A stretch of 64,000 nucleotides of DNA from a virus (IMGVR_UViG_3300042477_000769), one strand, 5' to 3'. Shown: positions 698-7,778, counted from the stretch's first letter. The notes: generated from the letters alone by a model not told the origin. Translations and numbers: made by a program.

Positions 698-1294
698 ATG
701 CAAGAAATTAAGATAGATTATTTTGGCACTAAACATTATTATTGGAATGGTCAGCGACATCGAGAAGATGGCCCTGCCGTAGAATATGCTGATGGAACTA
801 AGATGTGGTTTATTCATGGTTTGAAGCATCGAGAAGATAGACCAGCTGTAGAGCATGCTAATGGAGATAAAGAATGGTGGCTTCATGGCCAAAGACATCG
901 AGTAGGTCATCCAGCTTATGAGGGTGCTGATGGATCTAAACAATGGTGGCTTCATGGAAAACGGCATCGAGAAGATGGCCCGGCTCTAGAATGTGTTAAT
1001 GGAACTAAAGAGTGGCGGATTCATGATCAACTCCATCGAGCAGATGGCCCAGCCCATGAAGGCGCTGATGGAATGAAAAAATGGTGTCTTCATGGTCAAT
1101 TCCATCGAGAAGATGGTCCTGCATTAGAACATGCTGATGGATCCAAATTTTGGTTTATTCATGGCCAACAACATAGAGAAAATGGCCCTGCTATAGAATA
1201 CTCTAATGGAGCAAAACAATTTTGGTTACAAAATTCTTTAATTCTTTCAGAAGAAGAATATTGGAGAATACTTAAGTTGAAAGCATTATGGTGA
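698..1294 (+). CDS. HREDGPA-repeat (MORN-variant/YwqK-like) protein, 7 units
   Basis: ORF 686..1294; start placed at MQEIK (698) to match paralogs. Confidence 0.85.
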   Translation: MQEIKIDYFGTKHYYWNGQRHREDGPAVEYADGTKMWFIHGLKHREDRPAVEHANGDKEWWLHGQRHRVGHPAYEGADGSKQWWLHGKRHREDGPALECVNGTKEWRIHDQLHRADGPAHEGADGMKKWCLHGQFHREDGPALEHADGSKFWFIHGQQHRENGPAIEYSNGAKQFWLQNSLILSEEEYWRILKLKALW

Positions 1295-1297
1295 AAT

Positions 1298-1546
1298 ATG
1301 CAAGAAATTAAAAATTATAAAGATGGCACTTCCAAATATTATTGGAATGGCCGATTACATCGAGAAGATGGTCCAGCGATAGAATGGTCTCATGGCACTA
1401 AAGAATGGTATCTTCATGGAAAATGTCATCGAGAAGATGGTCCAGCAATAGAGTGGACTAATGGAGATAAATATTGGTACCTTCAAGGTAAACAATATTC
1501 GGAGCAAGAATATTGGAGACGAGTTAAACTAAAAGCTTTATGGTGA
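1298..1546 (+). CDS. HREDGPA-repeat protein, 2 units
   Basis: MQEIK...HREDGPA x2...EYWRRVKLKALW. Confidence 0.85.
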   Translation: MQEIKNYKDGTSKYYWNGRLHREDGPAIEWSHGTKEWYLHGKCHREDGPAIEWTNGDKYWYLQGKQYSEQEYWRRVKLKALW

Positions 1547-1550
1547 AGTT

Positions 1551-2003
1551 ATGCAAAAAATTAAAGAAGATCACTGGGGAAAATATTATTATTGGAATGG
1601 TCTCTTCCATCGAGAAGATGGTCCAGCAGCAGAATTCTACAATGGAGATAAAGATTGGTATTATTATGGTCAACGTCATCGAGAAAATGGACCAGCCAGA
1701 GAATTTGCTCATGGCCATAAAGAATGGTGGCTTCATGGTCAACGTCATCGGGAAGATGGTCCAGCCAGAGAATATTATGATGGGTCTAAAGAATGGTATC
1801 TTCATGGAAAATGTCATCGAGAAGATGGTCCAGCGGCAGAATATTCTAATGGAGACAAATTATGGTATTTTAAAGATCAGCTTCATCGAGAAAATGGTCC
1901 AGCTATAGAATGTGAAGATGGTGCTAAAAGCTGGTATCTTCAAGATAAAGAATATTCAGAAGAAGAATATTGGAGAGTAGTGAAATTAAAAGCTTTATGG
2001 TAA
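1551..2003 (+). CDS. HREDGPA-repeat protein, 5 units
   Basis: MQKIK...5 units...EYWRVVKLKALW. Confidence 0.85.
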   Translation: MQKIKEDHWGKYYYWNGLFHREDGPAAEFYNGDKDWYYYGQRHRENGPAREFAHGHKEWWLHGQRHREDGPAREYYDGSKEWYLHGKCHREDGPAAEYSNGDKLWYFKDQLHRENGPAIECEDGAKSWYLQDKEYSEEEYWRVVKLKALW

Positions 2004-2012
2004 ATAGTTATT

Positions 2013-2771
2013 ATGTTTAATAAAATTATTGATGCTTGCAAATATTTGCTGACTAGCTTTCCAGAAGCTCAAACTAGCAAAGAATATCTAGATTCAAGAA
2101 TCTCCGCTAGTAGTCAAGAACTATTTGATTTTGGATTTTTCCCCAATTTAGATAATTTGCCCGTATTAATTGATTTGGTCGGAGAAGCTGAACTAATTAA
2201 TAGTAATTTGCTGTATTCCAAAATTATTGAAGATTCTGGAGGGATTAGGTCTCTTAATTTTTGTTATTTTGAACATTATCCTATTATTATGCCGTTTAAA
2301 GATCCATATGGGGAAATAGTTGGTATTGTGGGTCGAACCTTATTAAGCGAATCAGAATATAAAAACTTAGGTATACCTAAATACAAGAATACTAAGAACT
2401 TTAAAAAAGGCAATTTTTTATTCGGCTTATATGAAAATAAAGAACATATTATTAAAAATAATAGCGTTTATTTGGTAGAGGGTCAATTTGATGTAATTAA
2501 AGCAAGAGAAAAAGGCTTTAATAATATGGTAGCCTTAGGGACTTCTAGTATGACAGATTATCAATTCTCTGTTTTAAGTCGTTATACCGATAATATATTT
2601 TTATTATTGGATAATGATGAGGCCGGAGAAAAGGGTCGTAAATTTATTACCCATAAATATGGCAAATATGCAAATATTCAAAACTTTTACTTGCCTGATC
2701 AGTACAAGGATGTAGATGATTATTTTTCATTATCTCAAGAAGATACCTTATCGTTTGCAGTTAAAGTGTGA
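2013..2771 (+). CDS. dnaG: DnaG-type DNA primase, catalytic/TOPRIM core without N-terminal zinc-binding domain
   Basis: IIMPFKD..GEIVGIVGR, PKYKNT, LFGL, TOPRIM motifs VYLVEGQFDV and LLLDNDEAG. Confidence 0.85.
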   Translation: MFNKIIDACKYLLTSFPEAQTSKEYLDSRISASSQELFDFGFFPNLDNLPVLIDLVGEAELINSNLLYSKIIEDSGGIRSLNFCYFEHYPIIMPFKDPYGEIVGIVGRTLLSESEYKNLGIPKYKNTKNFKKGNFLFGLYENKEHIIKNNSVYLVEGQFDVIKAREKGFNNMVALGTSSMTDYQFSVLSRYTDNIFLLLDNDEAGEKGRKFITHKYGKYANIQNFYLPDQYKDVDDYFSLSQEDTLSFAVKV

Positions 2772-2783
2772 AATGGTTAACTT

Positions 2784-3302
2784 ATGCAAAAAATATTAAA
2801 AAGAAAAGGAATTATAGAATATATTTCTTACGGCAAACGTCATCGAGAAGATGGCCCGGCAGCAATATGGTTTAATGGAGATAAATCCTGGTATCTTCAT
2901 GGTCATCTTCATCGAATAGATGGCCCGGCATTAGAATGGACTAATGGACATCAAGAATGGTGGCTTCATGATCAACGCCATCGAGACGATGGGCCTGCAA
3001 TTGAGTATTTAAATGGAGATAAAGAATGGTGGATTCATGGAAAGCGCCATCGAGAAGGCGCTCCAGCCATAGAAAGTTTCAGTGAGAAACGATGGTATCT
3101 TCATGGTCATCTTCATCGAGAAGATGGTCCAGCGATAGAGTTGCCTAATGGACGTAAAGAGTGGCATCTTCATGATCAATGCCATCGAGAAGATGGTCCG
3201 GCAATAGAAGATGCTTATGGAAATAAATGGTGGTACTTTCAAGGTAAAAATTATACAGAAAAAGAATATTGGAGAGTACTTAAATTGAAAGCTTTATGGT
3301 AA
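2784..3302 (+). CDS. HREDGPA-repeat protein, 6 units
   Basis: MQKILK...6 units...EYWRVLKLKALW. Confidence 0.85.
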   Translation: MQKILKRKGIIEYISYGKRHREDGPAAIWFNGDKSWYLHGHLHRIDGPALEWTNGHQEWWLHDQRHRDDGPAIEYLNGDKEWWIHGKRHREGAPAIESFSEKRWYLHGHLHREDGPAIELPNGRKEWHLHDQCHREDGPAIEDAYGNKWWYFQGKNYTEKEYWRVLKLKALW

Positions 3303-3305
3303 AGT

Positions 3306-3692
3306 ATGCAAGAAATTAAAAAAGAGATATGTGGCGCTAAAAAATATTATTGGAAGTATCAGCTACATCGAGAAGATGGGCCAGCCATAGAATGGCATGA
3401 TGGATCTAAAGAATGGTGGATTCATGGTCAACTTCATCGAGAAGATGGTCCGGCAGTAGAATATACTAATGGAGAGAAATTTTGGTATCTTTATGGTAAA
3501 TGCCATCGAGAAGATGGACCTGCCGTAGAATGGTTTAATGGAAATAAATATTGGTTTTTTCATGGTCAACGTCATCGAGAAGATGGCCCAGCTATAGAGC
3601 ATTCTGATGGATTGAAAGCTTTTTATCTTCAAGGAAAAGACTATTCAGAAGAAGAATATTGGCGATTAGTTAAATTAAAAGGTTTGTGGTAA
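3306..3692 (+). CDS. HREDGPA-repeat protein, 4 units
   Basis: MQEIK...EYWRLVKLKGLW. Confidence 0.85.
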   Translation: MQEIKKEICGAKKYYWKYQLHREDGPAIEWHDGSKEWWIHGQLHREDGPAVEYTNGEKFWYLYGKCHREDGPAVEWFNGNKYWFFHGQRHREDGPAIEHSDGLKAFYLQGKDYSEEEYWRLVKLKGLW

Positions 3693-3696
3693 CACA

Positions 3697-4083
3697 ATGC
3701 AAGAAATTAAGATAGATATATTTGGTACCAAAAAATATTATTGGAATGGTCGATTGCATCGAGAAGATGGGCCAGCGATAGAATATTCTGATGGAACTAC
3801 AGTGTGGTTTCTTCATAATAAGAAACATCGAGAAGATGGTCCGGCAGTAGAAACTATTGATGGAGATATGGGTTGGTATCGTTATGGAGAATTACATCGA
3901 GAAAAAGAGCCCGCCATTATATTAAATAATGGGGAGAAATCTTGGTGGCTTCATGATCAACGGCACAGAGAGGATGGGCCCGCCGTAGAATTTGCTAATG
4001 GAGAAAAAGAGTGGTTTCTTCAAGGCACAGAATATTTAGAAGAAGAATATTGGCGCTTAGTTAAACTAAAGGGTTTGTGGTAA
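3697..4083 (+). CDS. HREDGPA-repeat protein, 4 units
   Basis: MQEIK...EYWRLVKLKGLW. Confidence 0.85.
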   Translation: MQEIKIDIFGTKKYYWNGRLHREDGPAIEYSDGTTVWFLHNKKHREDGPAVETIDGDMGWYRYGELHREKEPAIILNNGEKSWWLHDQRHREDGPAVEFANGEKEWFLQGTEYLEEEYWRLVKLKGLW

Positions 4084-4087
4084 TAAT

Positions 4088-4474
4088 ATGCAAAAAATTA
4101 AGATAGATAAAGATGGTAATAAAAGATATTATTGGAATAATAAGTTACATCGAGAAGATGGTCCGGCCATAGAATGGTTTAATGGACGTAAAGATTGGTA
4201 CCTTCATGGTCAACGACATCGAGAAGCGGGACCAGCAGTAGAATATGAGAATGGAGATAAAGAATGGTTTATCCATGGAAAATATCATCGAGAAGATGGC
4301 CCAGCCAGAGAATTTTTTTGGGGAGGTAAAGAATGGTTTCTTCACGGTCAACTCCATCGAGAAGATGGACCAGCCATAGAATATGCTAGTGGAGAAAAAT
4401 ATTGGTACCTTCAAGGCAAAGAATATACAGAAGAAGAGTATTGGCGAGTGGTTAAATTAAAAGCTTTGTGGTAA
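4088..4474 (+). CDS. HREDGPA-repeat protein, 4 units
   Basis: MQKIK...EYWRVVKLKALW. Confidence 0.85.
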   Translation: MQKIKIDKDGNKRYYWNNKLHREDGPAIEWFNGRKDWYLHGQRHREAGPAVEYENGDKEWFIHGKYHREDGPAREFFWGGKEWFLHGQLHREDGPAIEYASGEKYWYLQGKEYTEEEYWRVVKLKALW

Positions 4475-4477
4475 AGT

Positions 4478-4798
4478 ATGCAAGAAATAAAAATAAATGA
4501 ACGTGGGACTAAAAGATACTATTGGAATGATGAATTACATCGAGAAGATGGTCCGGCCATAGAGAGGAGTAATGGAGATAAAGAATGGTGGATTCATGGC
4601 AAAAGACATCGAGAAAATGGTCCCGCTATAGAATATATTAATGGATATAAAGAATGGTATCTTCATGGTCAATGTCATCGAGAAGATGGTCCAGCCATAG
4701 AATATGCCGATGGTTATCAAGAATTTTGGCTAAATAACCGCTTTATTTCTTCAAAAGAAGAATATTGGCGGTTAGTTAAGTTGAAAGCTCTATGGTAA
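4478..4798 (+). CDS. HREDGPA-repeat protein, 3 units
   Basis: MQEIK...EYWRLVKLKALW. Confidence 0.85.
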   Translation: MQEIKINERGTKRYYWNDELHREDGPAIERSNGDKEWWIHGKRHRENGPAIEYINGYKEWYLHGQCHREDGPAIEYADGYQEFWLNNRFISSKEEYWRLVKLKALW

Positions 4799-4811: not shown

Positions 4812-5636
4812 ATGCTTTTTATTTACAAAATTACCAATTTAATAAATGGAAAAATTTACATTGGGCAAACTATTAATCCCTCTCGAAGATGGTCACAGCA
4901 TAAATCTAATGCTAAACTCCAAAAAGGTAAGCAAATTATTACCGCCGCCATCCGTAAATATGGGCCAGACTCCTTCTCTTTCCAAATAATTGCCACCTGC
5001 CTCTCCCAAGACCAAGCTAATTGTTCAGAAGAACTGATCATCCAACAAGAAAATAGCCGTCATCCCAATATTGGATACAATGTGGACAAAGGTGGTATGC
5101 TGCAATCTCAAGATCCAATTATTGCGGCTAAAATTAGTCACAGCCTTAAAAAATATTATCAATCTCACGATAATTGGAATAAAGGAGGCACCCTCTCTCC
5201 TGAATGGAAAGAAAAAATATCCCAATCTCATGTAGGGAAAACTGGAACCAATACTGGAAAAACACTCCCCAATAATTGGAAATTAAAAATTTCTCAATCT
5301 CAAGCCGGTCAACCTAAACTTTCCAAAAGAAAATTTCCGCCTCAAATAGAACAAGAAATCTGTCAATTATATATTAATAATAATTCTGCCTACTCATTAG
5401 CTAAACAATTCCAATGTCACCGGACTGTCATTACCGATATTTTAATTCGTCATCATATTACTTTAAGAGTTGCTTCCAATAATAAGAGAAAGAAATTATT
5501 CTCTGCAGAGCAAGAACTAGAGATATGTCAAGAGTATCAGCAAAAAATATATTCCAGAACTGACCTGGCTATCAAATATAAGTGTAGCAAAACAACTATT
5601 AGGGATATATTAATAAGACATAGTGTTCAACTGTAA
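4812..5636 (+). CDS. GIY-YIG homing endonuclease with NUMOD3-like repeats and C-terminal HTH
   Basis: IYKITNLINGKIYIGQT, conserved R and E, GYN, repeats such as EWKEKISQSHVGK. Confidence 0.9.
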   Translation: MLFIYKITNLINGKIYIGQTINPSRRWSQHKSNAKLQKGKQIITAAIRKYGPDSFSFQIIATCLSQDQANCSEELIIQQENSRHPNIGYNVDKGGMLQSQDPIIAAKISHSLKKYYQSHDNWNKGGTLSPEWKEKISQSHVGKTGTNTGKTLPNNWKLKISQSQAGQPKLSKRKFPPQIEQEICQLYINNNSAYSLAKQFQCHRTVITDILIRHHITLRVASNNKRKKLFSAEQELEICQEYQQKIYSRTDLAIKYKCSKTTIRDILIRHSVQL

Positions 5637-5644
5637 ATGAGGTG

Positions 5645-6088
5645 ATGATGGAACCGAGAAAAAACCGAAGCGATAAGTACCAATGGATACTCCTCGAAAC
5701 CGCCTGCTCCAACGAAATGCTCGAATCCTTCTGCAACGAAGACAGCATCTCGTCTCGCTTAAACCCCTTTCAATATAATGAAAATCTAATTGATTTAGAA
5801 GATCAATTGAAGAAAGAATTTTGGAGAGTGGTAGAAACTTTGTTAACTCCTCGTCAACGTCAGGTGATTCGATTGTATGCTGATGGTTATACCCAGATGG
5901 AAATTGCTAAGATGTTAAATGTTAATCAAAGTTCAATTACGAAATCGCTGAACGGTAACGTGGATTATAAGAACGGGAAAAAGATCTACGGTGGCGCGAG
6001 AAAGAAAATCCGCAAAATCATCGAAAACGACACCAAGATCAAAGAAATCTTACAGAAAATCGCCGAATGTCGAGATGAAAAATGGTAA
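5645..6088 (+). CDS. Sigma-70 region-4 / sigma-like HTH transcription factor
   Basis: LLTPRQRQVIRLYADGYTQMEIAKMLNVNQSSI; SD GAGGTG at 5639-5644. Confidence 0.7.
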   Translation: MMEPRKNRSDKYQWILLETACSNEMLESFCNEDSISSRLNPFQYNENLIDLEDQLKKEFWRVVETLLTPRQRQVIRLYADGYTQMEIAKMLNVNQSSITKSLNGNVDYKNGKKIYGGARKKIRKIIENDTKIKEILQKIAECRDEKW

Positions 6089-6094
6089 GTCACT

Positions 6095-6934
6095 GTGACA
6101 CTTTGCTCTCAATGCCAAATGCCTCAAACTCAATTTGTGCCCAAGACAAAATGGTGTGCCACCTGTCATCAAAACTATAAAAAGAGAAAATATCAAGAAA
6201 ATTTATCAGCCAGTAGATACTATACTAACCAAAGAAGAGCGGCAAGAATTCAATGGTTTCAACAACTTAAAGCCAATATTCCTTGTACGGATTGTGGAAA
6301 AATATATGATCCCGTTTGTTTAGATTATGATCACGTACCAGGTCGAGGCATTAAATATAAAAATGTGTCTCGGATGGTGTTAGATAATAGTCCGAAAGAA
6401 AAGATCTTAGAAGAAATCAAGAAATGTGAATTGGTTTGCGTGTTATGTCATAATGCGCGGACCTTTTGTCGTTTAAAAACGGCCACTGCTTATAAACCAC
6501 ATCAACAAAGAAATATTAATATAATTAATCAGTTCAAAGAACAACCGTGCGTTTACTGTGGTCAACAATACCCTAGCTATAATATGCAAATGGATCATAT
6601 CAATCCAGCACACAAGTTATCTAATATATCACAGTTGAAAAGTAGTAAAGTAGAAATTTTGCATCAAGAATTGGCTAAATGCCAGGTGTTATGTGCTGTA
6701 TGTCATCGGCTTAAATCGATTATTGAACAAAAGGCCGGAAAATATTTACTTGCCAAATCTAAAATTGCTAAAAAGAGGTTATATTTTGATGGATATGTCA
6801 AAGAGTGCGGTCGATGCCGGCAACTAAAAGAACTTAGCTGTTTTAGAAAACATCAGCACACTACTTCTGGCTATAACACTTATTGTATAAGCTGTTTTAA
6901 TGAGTACCGACGACAACGAAGAGCCAACCTGTAA
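6095..6934 (+). CDS. HNH endonuclease with two tandem HNH modules
   Basis: CTDC..LDYDHV..KCELVCVLCH and CVYC..MQMDHI..KCQVLCAVCH, plus a C-terminal Cys4 cluster. Confidence 0.8.
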   Translation: MTLCSQCQMPQTQFVPKTKWCATCHQNYKKRKYQENLSASRYYTNQRRAARIQWFQQLKANIPCTDCGKIYDPVCLDYDHVPGRGIKYKNVSRMVLDNSPKEKILEEIKKCELVCVLCHNARTFCRLKTATAYKPHQQRNINIINQFKEQPCVYCGQQYPSYNMQMDHINPAHKLSNISQLKSSKVEILHQELAKCQVLCAVCHRLKSIIEQKAGKYLLAKSKIAKKRLYFDGYVKECGRCRQLKELSCFRKHQHTTSGYNTYCISCFNEYRRQRRANL

Positions 6935-7778
6935 AATCTATTTGTTAACTAATGTAATCAATAATAAGATTTATATTGGTCAAACTTGGAATTCAGTTCA
7001 CTCTCGAATGGGTAAAAAAGGATCAAAATATAGGAACTCTCCTTATTTGTATAAGGCTATTGTCAAATATGGGGCCCAAAATTTCAAATATGAAATCTTG
7101 GTTAAGTGTTATGATCAAGAGACAGCGGATTATTTAGAAGAATATTATATTAAGCAATATCGAAGTCAAGATTCTCATATTGGTTATAATTTGAAAGAAG
7201 GCGGTCGAGGAGGTAAGCATTCGTTGGAAACCAAAGAAAAGATCTCTCAATCCGTAAAGAAACAATTGGCCAATTTAACTCCAGAAGAGTTATTAGAGAG
7301 AACGGCCAAAATATCTAGTTATTGGTCTGGAAAGCAGCGAGGCCCACAAACAGAGCAATGGAAACAAGAAAATTCTGCTAAAATTAAAGCTTGGCATGCA
7401 GAACATCCACACCCTATGTTGGGGAAGAGTCATTCAGCGGAAGCAAAAGCAAAAATTAAGCGGAGTAGTTTGGGCAGAAAGTGTTCTCCGGAAGCTATTC
7501 AAAAGCGAGTGGCAAAATTAAAGATAGATCAAGAATTAGAATTATCTATTATTATGGCGTATCAGAGTGGGGATCTTATTTCTGAAATTGAAAAAGAATA
7601 TGGGGTAAGAGTATCAACTATTTACCGAGTGCTGAAGAGGAACGCTATTCCGTTAAGGGGATGTGATCAGAGTTGGGTCGGTAAGAGTCATACTCCAGAA
7701 ACCTTGGAAAAGATGTCGAGAGCGAGGAAGAAGTATTGGGAGCGCCAACGAGTGATGGGGACAATTAATCAAGAATAA
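6900..7778 (+). CDS. GIY-YIG homing endonuclease (NUMOD3 repeats)
   Basis: KIYLLTNVINNKIYIGQT, GYNLKEGG, HSLETKEKIS, HSAEAKAKI, HTPETLEKMS. Confidence 0.9.
   Translation: MSTDDNEEPTCKIYLLTNVINNKIYIGQTWNSVHSRMGKKGSKYRNSPYLYKAIVKYGAQNFKYEILVKCYDQETADYLEEYYIKQYRSQDSHIGYNLKEGGRGGKHSLETKEKISQSVKKQLANLTPEELLERTAKISSYWSGKQRGPQTEQWKQENSAKIKAWHAEHPHPMLGKSHSAEAKAKIKRSSLGRKCSPEAIQKRVAKLKIDQELELSIIMAYQSGDLISEIEKEYGVRVSTIYRVLKRNAIPLRGCDQSWVGKSHTPETLEKMSRARKKYWERQRVMGTINQE

Follow-up and report, generated by a model that had tools for sequence, protein, structure and literature searches.

An old eight-gene array of HRxDGPA-repeat proteins in a very large lake-water phage as a possible repertoire of intracellular binders

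Why a phage should keep eight sister genes built from one short repeat in unequal numbers, and what their proteins would do in the infected cell, is the question raised by a locus of a very large lake-water phage (IMGVR_UViG_3300042477_000769). The locus occupies positions 698-4798 on the + strand of a window of 64,000 nt, that is, the whole stretch of DNA analysed here. The original prediction had seen in it an accordion-like array, a recombination-shuffled library of binding surfaces.

Layout of the array and its repeat unit

The eight intact family genes and the one gene that interrupts them are as follows:

698-1294, + strand: gene 1, 198 aa, cap, 7 units and tail helix
1298-1546, + strand: gene 2, 82 aa, cap, 2 units and tail
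1551-2003, + strand: gene 3, 150 aa, 5 units
2013-2771, + strand: DnaG-type primase core, not a family member, 252 aa, with DNAG_N and Toprim and lacking the zinc-binding domain
2784-3302, + strand: gene 4, 172 aa, 6 units (the fourth of 22 aa), divergent cap MQKILKRK
3306-3692, + strand: gene 5, 128 aa, 4 units, the protein used for fold prediction
3697-4083, + strand: gene 6, 128 aa, 4 units
4088-4474, + strand: gene 7, 128 aa, 4 units
4478-4798, + strand: gene 8, 106 aa, 3 units

The open reading frames and unit counts bear out most of the layout first proposed, namely eight genes with a common cap and tail and 2-7 units each, 35 in total (7+2+5+6+4+4+4+3 for genes 1-8), in a modular build on a fixed scaffold. 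What did not stand is contiguity, since the primase gene, unmentioned before, lies between genes 3 and 4 and divides the array into blocks of three and five genes. Within each block the genes are indeed only 3-4 nt apart, and gene 2 is in frame with gene 1, the two being separated by a stop and one codon. The EEYWRxxKLK(A/G)LW tail is present in 8/8 genes, and the MQ(E/K)IK start, once ascribed to all of them, in seven, gene 4 being the exception. The repeat period is exactly 23 aa, the short fourth unit of gene 4 being the sole deviation. The copies are 47-67% identical in protein, and a search of the rest of the window found no further family copy.

Per-position counts over the 34 full-length units separate a frame from a small number of free positions. 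H1, R2, P6, A7 and G13 are invariant (34/34), and E3 (30/34), D4 (27/34), G5 (31/34), K15 (30/34) and W17 (31/34) are nearly so, which gives the unit motif HRxDGPA-x-E-x3-G-x-K-x-W; the HR(E)DGPA, G-x-K and W previously called fixed are thus strictly fixed only in part. Conservation by residue class is found at position 10 (aromatic in 25/34), position 18 (aromatic in 31/34) and position 8 (aliphatic in 29/34). Hypervariability had been claimed more widely, and it holds for the four truly free positions 11, 14, 16 and 23 (entropy 2.9-3.3 bits) and fails for the class-conserved 8, 10 and 18.

The units also share a stretch of DNA. Within each genome, nearly all units use one arginine codon in the HR motif, and together with biased flanking codons this forms a 14-nt core, conserved at silent sites too, which in the window reads CATCGAGAAGATGG and recurs every 69 nt. 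Antisense reading frames across the repeats were set aside as a consequence of the codons used, since the lineages do not share one L19 codon. The conservation of silent sites at particular positions poses a puzzle of its own, and bears on the stability or renewal of repeat arrays.

Around the array lie a DnaJ-like (DnaJ_C) gene, a Zn-ribbon gene, the primase, homing endonuclease genes (GIY-YIG, which starts 13 nt 3' of gene 8, and HNH) and a sigma-region-4 gene. Sigma-70 promoter and terminator scans inside the array gave fewer sites than shuffled sequence, and no tRNA was found in the window or in relatives L001-L003. Co-transcription of the array with the replication genes beside it is probable, and the short spacers probably lead to translation by termination-reinitiation. 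The homologues of the cultured Celeribacter phage P12053L are placed between ThyX and the primase/helicase. At the DNA level, 12 kb queried by megablast found no match among cultured phages.

Predicted fold and its relatives

The AF2 model of gene 5 (pLDDT 93.5, pTM 0.82) consists of beta-hairpin repeats with a helix at 115-127. All of its top Foldseek matches in the PDB were MORN proteins (MORN1, MORN4-Myo3a, junctophilin and RSP1; probability 1.0), BFVD gave a match to a 130-aa Harvfovirus "MORN repeat-containing protein" (TM 0.93), and the Atlas fold search led to a MORN_2-bearing cluster under the name YwqK-family antitoxin (TM 0.82). The predicted fold is of the MORN type, a beta-sheet of a single layer with a helix at the C-terminal end. 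The MORN/YwqK-variant resemblance first proposed therefore holds at the fold level, and the sequence models do not match: neither Pfam MORN (PF02493, signature GxG...G10...YEGEW) nor, for five window proteins, MORN_2 (PF07661) or YwqK in Pfam and NCBIfam gave a match at E up to 10. PF07661 is carried by a minority of homologues and by neighbouring Atlas clusters. Membership of DUF6745 (PF20530) was rejected, the best score of 26.2 bits lying below the 27-bit gathering score and the partial match covering one repeat-like stretch (profile positions 63-88 of about 206). A PDB sequence search with the array proteins returned nothing meaningful. The score of a homodimer prediction for gene 5 was 0.09, a value that gives no verdict.

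With the MORN proteins (TbMORN1/TgMORN1/PfMORN1, MORN4 and junctophilins; PDB 6t68, 6t69, 6t4d, 6jle, 7rxe) the array shares the 23-residue period, kept by 34 of its 35 units, and, in the model, the single hairpin per unit, the elongated single-layer antiparallel sheet and the aromatic ladder (Sajko et al. 2020, PMC7725318), as well as the C-terminal helix of MORN4 and junctophilin. MORN proteins are platforms that bind proteins or peptides, which the array proteins may be too. In contrast, the GxG...G...YEGEW signature and the loop lengths of MORN proteins differ from the HRxDGPA-x-E-x3-G-x-K-x-W of the array. Each member of the array is, moreover, a very small protein in its own right that has its own cap and tail, and the genes stand in tandem in mobile elements.

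In the proposed architecture, an N-terminal cap hairpin would be followed by 2-7 MORN-like 23-residue hairpins and an amphipathic C-terminal helix, the hairpins stacking into one elongated single-layer sheet. The frame would comprise H1 R2 (E3) D4 G5 P6 A7, E9, N/D12 G13, K15 and W17, together with a hydrophobic residue at each of 8 and 19 and an aromatic one at each of 10 and 18, and the four free positions per unit would give each paralogue a surface and a length of its own. Because free and fixed residues alternate along the strands, the sequence pattern suggests that the free positions lie on one face of the sheet. The proteins are hydrophilic by GRAVY (-1.0 to -1.5), visual inspection of the sequences showed neither a signal peptide nor a membrane segment, and they are probably soluble and cytoplasmic; the range of their pI (5.4-8.7) spoke against an acidic DNA mimic.

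The fold match raises the question of whether the array encodes YwqK-type immunity proteins, each paralogue neutralising a particular toxin, either one from a host abortive-infection or toxin-antitoxin system or a polymorphic toxin. YwqK of B. subtilis binds YwqJ, an LXG deaminase toxin, and forms a complex with its toxin domain (bioRxiv 10.64898/2026.09.29.755374); with the Atlas match and the PF07661 of some homologues, this speaks for such a function. YwqK is a small soluble protein that neutralises its partner by binding it, a role that is putative for the array proteins. However, likeness of fold shows no function, the window proteins lack the sequence-model membership, and no toxin gene adjoins either the window array or the related array L002, the neighbours here being the replication, endonuclease and other genes named above instead of a cognate LXG or deaminase toxin. 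The array further differs in being phage-borne and multi-copy. We therefore regard immunity to particular toxins as an unlikely function.

Age and stability of the array

Active expansion and contraction, with unit shuffling that varies between phages of one population, was the reading originally put forward. It would agree with the unequal unit numbers among the paralogues and with the 14-nt core around the HR motif, a possible microhomology. We nevertheless find it highly improbable for this locus, which holds no near-identical units: unit-to-unit DNA identity is about 70% (maximum 87%), equal within and between genes, and the longest paralogous stretches reach 75-78%. Exact-match contigs from four lake metagenomes span the junctions 1/2, 3/primase/4 and 5/6/7, and for five other arrays a comparison with their IMG/VR sisters from other samples gave 99.96-100% identity and not one indel the size of a unit.

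Shuffling does happen, on long time scales, since gene and unit numbers differ among more distant relatives (8 genes here, 13 in L002) and the younger array L008 holds one identical non-colinear unit, which also speaks for an active library. The closest relative of gene 7 is copy 10 of L002 (72.7% aa identity). Unit colinearity among genes 5-7 is weak (0.73 vs 0.69), and points neither to a clean duplication of whole genes nor to clear shuffling.

Several other signs and drivers of rearrangement were considered and set aside. The many contig "joints" were rejected as rearrangements, their sides being only 22-49 nt long at a likeness setting of 88% in a paralogue-rich metagenome. An array-side homing endonuclease is no general driver of shuffling, as only the window and its closest relative L001-3 carry one. 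A search for the template/variable pair of a diversity-generating retroelement found no near-identical repeats, the best paralogous stretch being 78%, and no reverse transcriptase was found among the window ORFs scanned against Pfam and PHROGs. In poxviruses, a "gene accordion" was reportedly described by Elde and colleagues in 2012 for K3L amplification. The likeness is that of tandem copies of a host-interaction gene; the poxvirus copies are recent, near-identical and variable in the population, whereas the window array is old, diverged and fixed, and a gene accordion in this sense was rejected on the protein identity of its copies and on the exact junction contigs from four samples.

Selection, distribution and possible function

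Frame positions evolve with a dN/dS of about 0.18-0.22, under purifying selection, and the array genes therefore encode working proteins. At positions 11, 14, 16 and 23 of the window array dN/dS is 1.35, at or above the neutral rate, and among eight other arrays the same positions give 1.1-3.1 in six cases and 0.98 and 0.57 in the remaining two. These values are crude, as NG86 was applied to paralogous units of 69 nt, the pairs are not independent and synonymous rates are uneven. Values near 1 can also reflect a plain lack of constraint.

A general scaffold or sponge, such as self-assembling sheets with a crowding or chaperone-like role, in which the variable positions are unconstrained and copy number counts for more than sequence, would fit the values near 1 in several arrays, the tail-to-tail self-assembly of MORN1 proteins (PMC7725318) and the very high copy numbers in relatives. 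Against it, the paralogues have long been kept distinct and not homogenised, repeat number varies between copies, and the younger arrays reach 1.9-3.1 at the free positions; we hold a scaffold to be distinctly unlikely.

The family comprises 27,559 clusters at 50% identity. Many phage contigs carry arrays of 7-18 genes, and several of these contigs come from records of 200-400 kb; the closest relative has 107 matching stretches in one 128-kb fragment, and one 402-kb phage has 86 matches. Structural homologues are found in giant viruses (Harvfovirus, Hyperionvirus, megaviruses, Marseillevirus and Pandoravirus, in the BFVD search). In Janthinobacterium and Duganella (Oxalobacteraceae), arrays of 6-7 genes lie in integrase-bearing mobilisable islands, between NikA/MobC and the relaxase. 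Several bacteria have single-copy homologues in ordinary chromosomal contexts, and plasmids were rejected as carriers (5/72,556 plasmid records). A survey of 224 jumbo phages (PMC7824862) does not mention the family, and a full-text literature search for the motif and for DUF6745 returned no paper.

This distribution also bears on whether the proteins are virion-associated, either packaged or ejected along with the DNA or forming a decoration of the particle, instead of free factors in the cytoplasm. The islands make no virion and have the same array design; in the window, the genes adjoin the primase, with the head genes further downstream from near 20 kb, no leader precedes the cap, and the T4-type late promoter motif (TATAAATA) is not enriched. 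We hold a place in the virion to be distinctly improbable.

We tentatively favour, at a little below even confidence, the reading of the locus as an old, stable eight-gene tandem family that forms a repertoire of soluble intracellular binders in element-host conflict. The family is common to phages, giant viruses and islands, which points to such conflict. The binders would be made in the infected cell, where each would most likely hold or block a different partner; the partners would most plausibly be host proteins, either defence proteins or targets of takeover. The role first proposed, that of decoy antitoxins or inhibitors of defence proteins, is putative and would suit a family restricted to mobile elements. 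Points against the binder reading are the single-copy chromosomal homologues, the rarity on plasmids, the place of the island arrays in the mob operon and the searches of PADLOC and NCBIfam, which gave no match to the array and none to a toxin, defence or anti-defence family.

Two known systems offer parallels. The repeat families of giant viruses (ankyrin, FNIP and MORN; Shukla et al. 2018, PMC5753266) are likewise large, lineage-specific expansions of small repeat-domain binders in viruses with very large genomes, and differ in that the carrier here is a bacteriophage. The anti-defence clusters in the leading region of plasmids (Samuel et al. 2024, PMC11541004) also consist of small function-unassigned genes on invading elements, and the Oxalobacteraceae islands carry the array beside transfer genes. 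The island arrays differ from those clusters in sitting within the mob operon rather than demonstrably in a leading region, and plasmids seldom carry the family; an anti-defence role of the array is putative. A wider idea, which we consider unlikely, is that huge phages, giant viruses and some mobilisable islands share "innate antibody-like" arrays of capped HRxDGPA-repeat proteins. The four free positions of every hairpin and the varying number of hairpins would direct each copy at another host defence or takeover protein, and unit-level recombination at a DNA core that would be identical within a lineage even at silent sites (CATCGAGAAGATGG in this phage) would renew the repertoire over evolutionary time.

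The family ranks among the largest protein families without a tested member, with dozens of copies in some huge phages. Should each copy bind a target of its own, the family would represent a major unexplored layer of phage-host conflict, and the engineering of binders would gain a beta-sheet scaffold that is modular by nature.

Structure and conservation of the array

The array occupies 698-4798 on the + strand of the window and consists of eight intact genes of one family; no family copies beyond these eight were found in the rest of the window. The unit, a 23-aa HRxDGPA repeat predicted to form a beta-hairpin, keeps a period of exactly 23 aa with a single exception, one 22-aa unit. The tail EEYWRxxKLK(A/G)LW is present in all eight genes and the MQ(E/K)IK start in seven. 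The original prediction described eight modular genes with a common cap and tail, two to seven units each and spacers of 3-4 nt. This description stands, and the short spacers are seen inside both gene blocks, but the primase gene dividing the array had been missed.

Features of the array and its surroundings (window coordinates)
2-370: phage DnaJ C-terminal domain protein, upstream of the array
367-693: 108-aa double Zn-ribbon ORF
698-4798, + strand: repeat genes 1-8, of 198, 82, 150, 172, 128, 128, 128 and 106 aa, with 7, 2, 5, 6, 4, 4, 4 and 3 units, respectively
1292-1300, 3300-3308 and 4472-4480, + strand: in-frame junctions of gene pairs 1/2, 4/5 and 7/8, respectively
2013-2771, + strand: DnaG-type primase core, 252 aa, between genes 1-3 and genes 4-8
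647-967, 1524-1817, 3363-3632 and 4145-4414, - strand: open antisense frames, codon-aligned
4812-7778: GIY-YIG, sigma-70 region 4, HNH and GIY-YIG gene cluster, directly downstream of the array

Genes 1/2, 4/5 and 7/8 share a frame, with a stop and one codon between them (TGA AAT, TAA AGT and TAA AGT, respectively), so that read-through would join them; fused relatives as long as about 1,900 aa are known. Over the repeat part of the genes the codon-aligned antisense frame (reading ...IFSM...) is open, probably as a by-product, and CTT in place of TTA at Leu19 helps to keep it so.

Among the 34 full units, H1, R2, P6, A7 and G13 are invariant, and E3, D4, G5, E9, K15 and W17 nearly so. Position 8 is aliphatic in 29/34 and position 19 hydrophobic in 32/34, while an aromatic residue occupies position 10 in 25 and position 18 in 31 of them. 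Truly free are only positions 11, 14, 16 and 23, with an entropy of 2.9-3.3 bits; the other sites originally listed as hypervariable are class-conserved ladder residues.

Selection was estimated from nearest-neighbour unit pairs by Nei-Gojobori counting. At frame positions, dN/dS was 0.18-0.22 in the window array and 0.07-0.46 in the others, and these low values indicate purifying selection on the proteins. The free positions gave 1.35 in the window array, a circular value since they were picked on that array; in eight independent arrays we obtained 1.49, 1.22, 1.10, 3.07, 1.92, 1.24, 0.57 and 0.98, the highest values belonging to the youngest arrays. Given a crude method, non-independent pairs and uneven silent rates, we take these results as suggestive, not as proof, of diversifying selection at the free positions. 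That such proteins form a scaffold or sponge without specificity appears rather improbable.

Silent sites in the units were fixed on set codons, against the preference of the genome.

Codons fixed within units
Arg2: CGA in 31/34 (background 0.23)
Ile8: ATA in 14/16 (background 0.16)
Val8: GTA in 7/7
Gly13: GGA in 28/34 (background 0.41)
Leu19: CTT in 20/22 (background 0.05; TTA background 0.64)

As a consequence, an identical 14-nt core, CATCGAGAAGATGG, recurs every 69 nt in the array (698-4798). At the fourfold sites of G5, P6, A7 and G21 all or most codons are in use, and the tail Arg of the array genes is encoded in four different ways. Other lineages have fixed the Arg2 codon differently, as AGA, CGT or CGC. 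The core could serve as a microhomology anchor in unit-level recombination, could supply programmed slow codons for folding, or could reflect another constraint at the DNA or RNA level.

Fold and family assignment

The AlphaFold2 model of gene 5, with 15 relatives in the alignment, reached a pLDDT of 93.5 and a pTM of 0.82, and comprises a cap hairpin, hairpin repeats with short strands, and a C-terminal helix at 115-127. Against the PDB, Foldseek placed MORN1 of Toxoplasma, Trypanosoma and Plasmodium first, followed by MORN4-Myo3a, junctophilins and radial-spoke MORN proteins; the probability of these matches was 1.0, yet TM was only 0.38-0.48. Predicted structures matched much more closely, with TM 0.97 to a viral "DUF6745/MORN repeat variant" cluster, 0.93 in BFVD to a 130-aa Harvfovirus "MORN repeat-containing protein", and 0.82 to a bacterial cluster named YwqK-family antitoxin. 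Further BFVD matches came from Hyperionvirus, megaviruses, Marseillevirus, Pandoravirus, Atu_ph07 and Celeribacter phage P12053L. The MORN/YwqK-variant likeness suggested in the original prediction was thus borne out at the level of the predicted fold.

By sequence comparison, the window proteins fall outside every curated family: DUF6745 gave only a sub-threshold match to one repeat-length stretch, and NCBIfam, PADLOC and PDB sequence searches returned nothing. Because the unit has the length of MORN but lacks its signature (PMC7725318), we file it, on the modelled fold, as a MORN-like variant outside MORN, MORN_2 and YwqK. Those fold relatives whose structures have been solved act as platforms for a bound partner: Myo3a on MORN4, STIL on the CPAP G-box and CaV1.1 on junctophilin. 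YwqK, too, acts by binding its toxin (bioRxiv 10.64898/2026.09.29.755374). That the window proteins are themselves toxin-neutralising immunity proteins is, in our estimate, unlikely.

Carriers and distribution of the family

The window belongs to the very large genome of a lake-water phage. Its genes include a terminase, an intein-bearing portal, a head protease, homing endonucleases and a DnaJ-like protein; the stretch is present in many lake-water metagenome runs, and megablast of 12 kb found no close DNA match among cultured phages. The array lies within one long + strand gene run, adjoining replication genes, and scans of this run detected neither a promoter nor a terminator signal within it. 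The cultured podophage P12053L has its homologues in the left arm, with ThyX on one side and primase/helicase on the other. We consider it quite improbable that the repeat proteins are virion-associated. The primase consists of the DNAG_N and Toprim core only, without a zinc-binding domain, and three repeat genes stand between it and the upstream Zn-ribbon ORF; the two may be one primase split by insertion of genes 1-3, and the ORF did not match zf-CHC2 in Pfam.

Clustered at 50% identity, the matches of an exhaustive search form 27,559 clusters at an E-value limit of 0.001 and 14,299 at a limit of 1e-10. Homologues measure about 70 to 1,900 aa and almost never carry a second domain. IMG/VR repeatedly shows tandem arrays of 7-18 genes, and several of these belong to phages of 200-400 kb. 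The record of contig L002 (a 128-kb fragment of a huge phage, CheckV completeness 28%) has 107 matching stretches at 2-121 kb, a 402-kb phage has 86 family matches inside 23 kb (87-110 kb), and a 321-kb phage has 31; the terminase of the last is 54-56% identical to that of the window, which makes it a true relative.

Species-representative bacterial genomes hold relatives in many phyla; on plasmids the family is rare. In three Burkholderiales isolates (L062:3465-12182, L089:3430-11701, L112:1387-2832) it sits in a mobilisation module. The arrays of Janthinobacterium sp. RB2P8 (seven genes) and Duganella qianjiadongensis (six genes) have a NikA/MobC gene on one side and a relaxase-like gene on the other, then an AAA_13 protein, and stop and start codons overlap between their genes. 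In Janthinobacterium a tyrosine integrase lies about 15 kb from the array on the same contig, and in Acidovorax one or two copies stand upstream of a relaxase-like gene belonging to the same locus. The island loci have a GC of about 44%. Island proteins carry their own conserved cap, MKNGRYEE, and a helix plus basic tail; in the Janthinobacterium and Duganella arrays this basic end, ...KPKPTQKRSKI, is conserved in every copy and recalls type IV secretion signals.

Turnover of the arrays and a proposed role

An accordion-like, recombination-shuffled library had been proposed for the window array. For this array the proposal was not borne out. Unit DNA identity averages 69-70%, whether units of one gene or of different genes are compared, and never exceeds 87%; the longest paralogous stretches reach 75-78%, and in the three 4-unit genes same-ordinal units are barely closer (0.73) than others (0.69). 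Logan contigs from four lake metagenomes showed zero differences over 780-1426, 1805-3138 and 3652-4156, spanning junctions 1/2, 3/primase/4 and 5/6/7 exactly, although rare variants may stay hidden in contigs. Five other arrays, each in several samples, were 99.96-100% identical over 10-16 kb, with no unit-sized indels. An accordion active at present is therefore very improbable.

Change in the family becomes visible over longer time scales. The closest relative (IMG/VR contigs L001-3), the only other to share the window cap and tail, has 13 genes versus 8, and one-to-one pairs are weak (window gene 7 with L002 copy L10, 72.7%; gene 1 with L6, 62%; gene 4 with L1, 57%). Other arrays are mostly lineage-specific expansions, each with its own cap and tail. 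At L008:8523-10404, in a younger array, unit 3 of one gene equals unit 1 of another at 100% DNA identity, compared with 93-94% for the colinear units, which marks a recent transfer at the level of the unit.

Within the closest relative, the copy at L002:8001-8387 carries an in-frame TAG codon at a position that encodes Gln in its sister copies (YYWNG-TAG-LHREDGPA versus YYWNGQLHREDGPA). Three contigs agree on this TAG, which points to a nonsense mutation of recent date or else to amber read-through; no tRNA was found in the 12 kb of this relative that was scanned. A 382-aa ORF inside its array (L002:6182-7330) resembles by eye a TnpB/IS605 OrfB transposase. A GIY-YIG endonuclease gene adjoins the end of the array (L002:9551-10216; window counterpart 4812-5636), and such a gene adjoins only these two arrays.

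Expanded MORN-type repeat families are already known from giant viruses (PMC5753266), and given the clear fold resemblance ours is not a new kind. Iyer et al. 2021, in their broad survey of jumbo phages, make no mention of MORN, and full-text literature searches for the HRxDGPA motif and DUF6745 returned no paper. The HRxDGPA variant with its capped mini-protein form is new, or at any rate undescribed, and so are its occurrence in tandem arrays, both in phages and in mobilisable islands, and the silent-site pattern. The window proteins are hydrophilic, near-neutral and aromatic-rich, and no export signals were seen in them by eye. Collectively, the fixed frame with few free positions, the variable length, the long-term retention of distinct copies, the very high copy numbers and the restriction mainly to invading elements lead us to favour, tentatively, the view that the family may be a repertoire of intracellular protein binders directed at host proteins.
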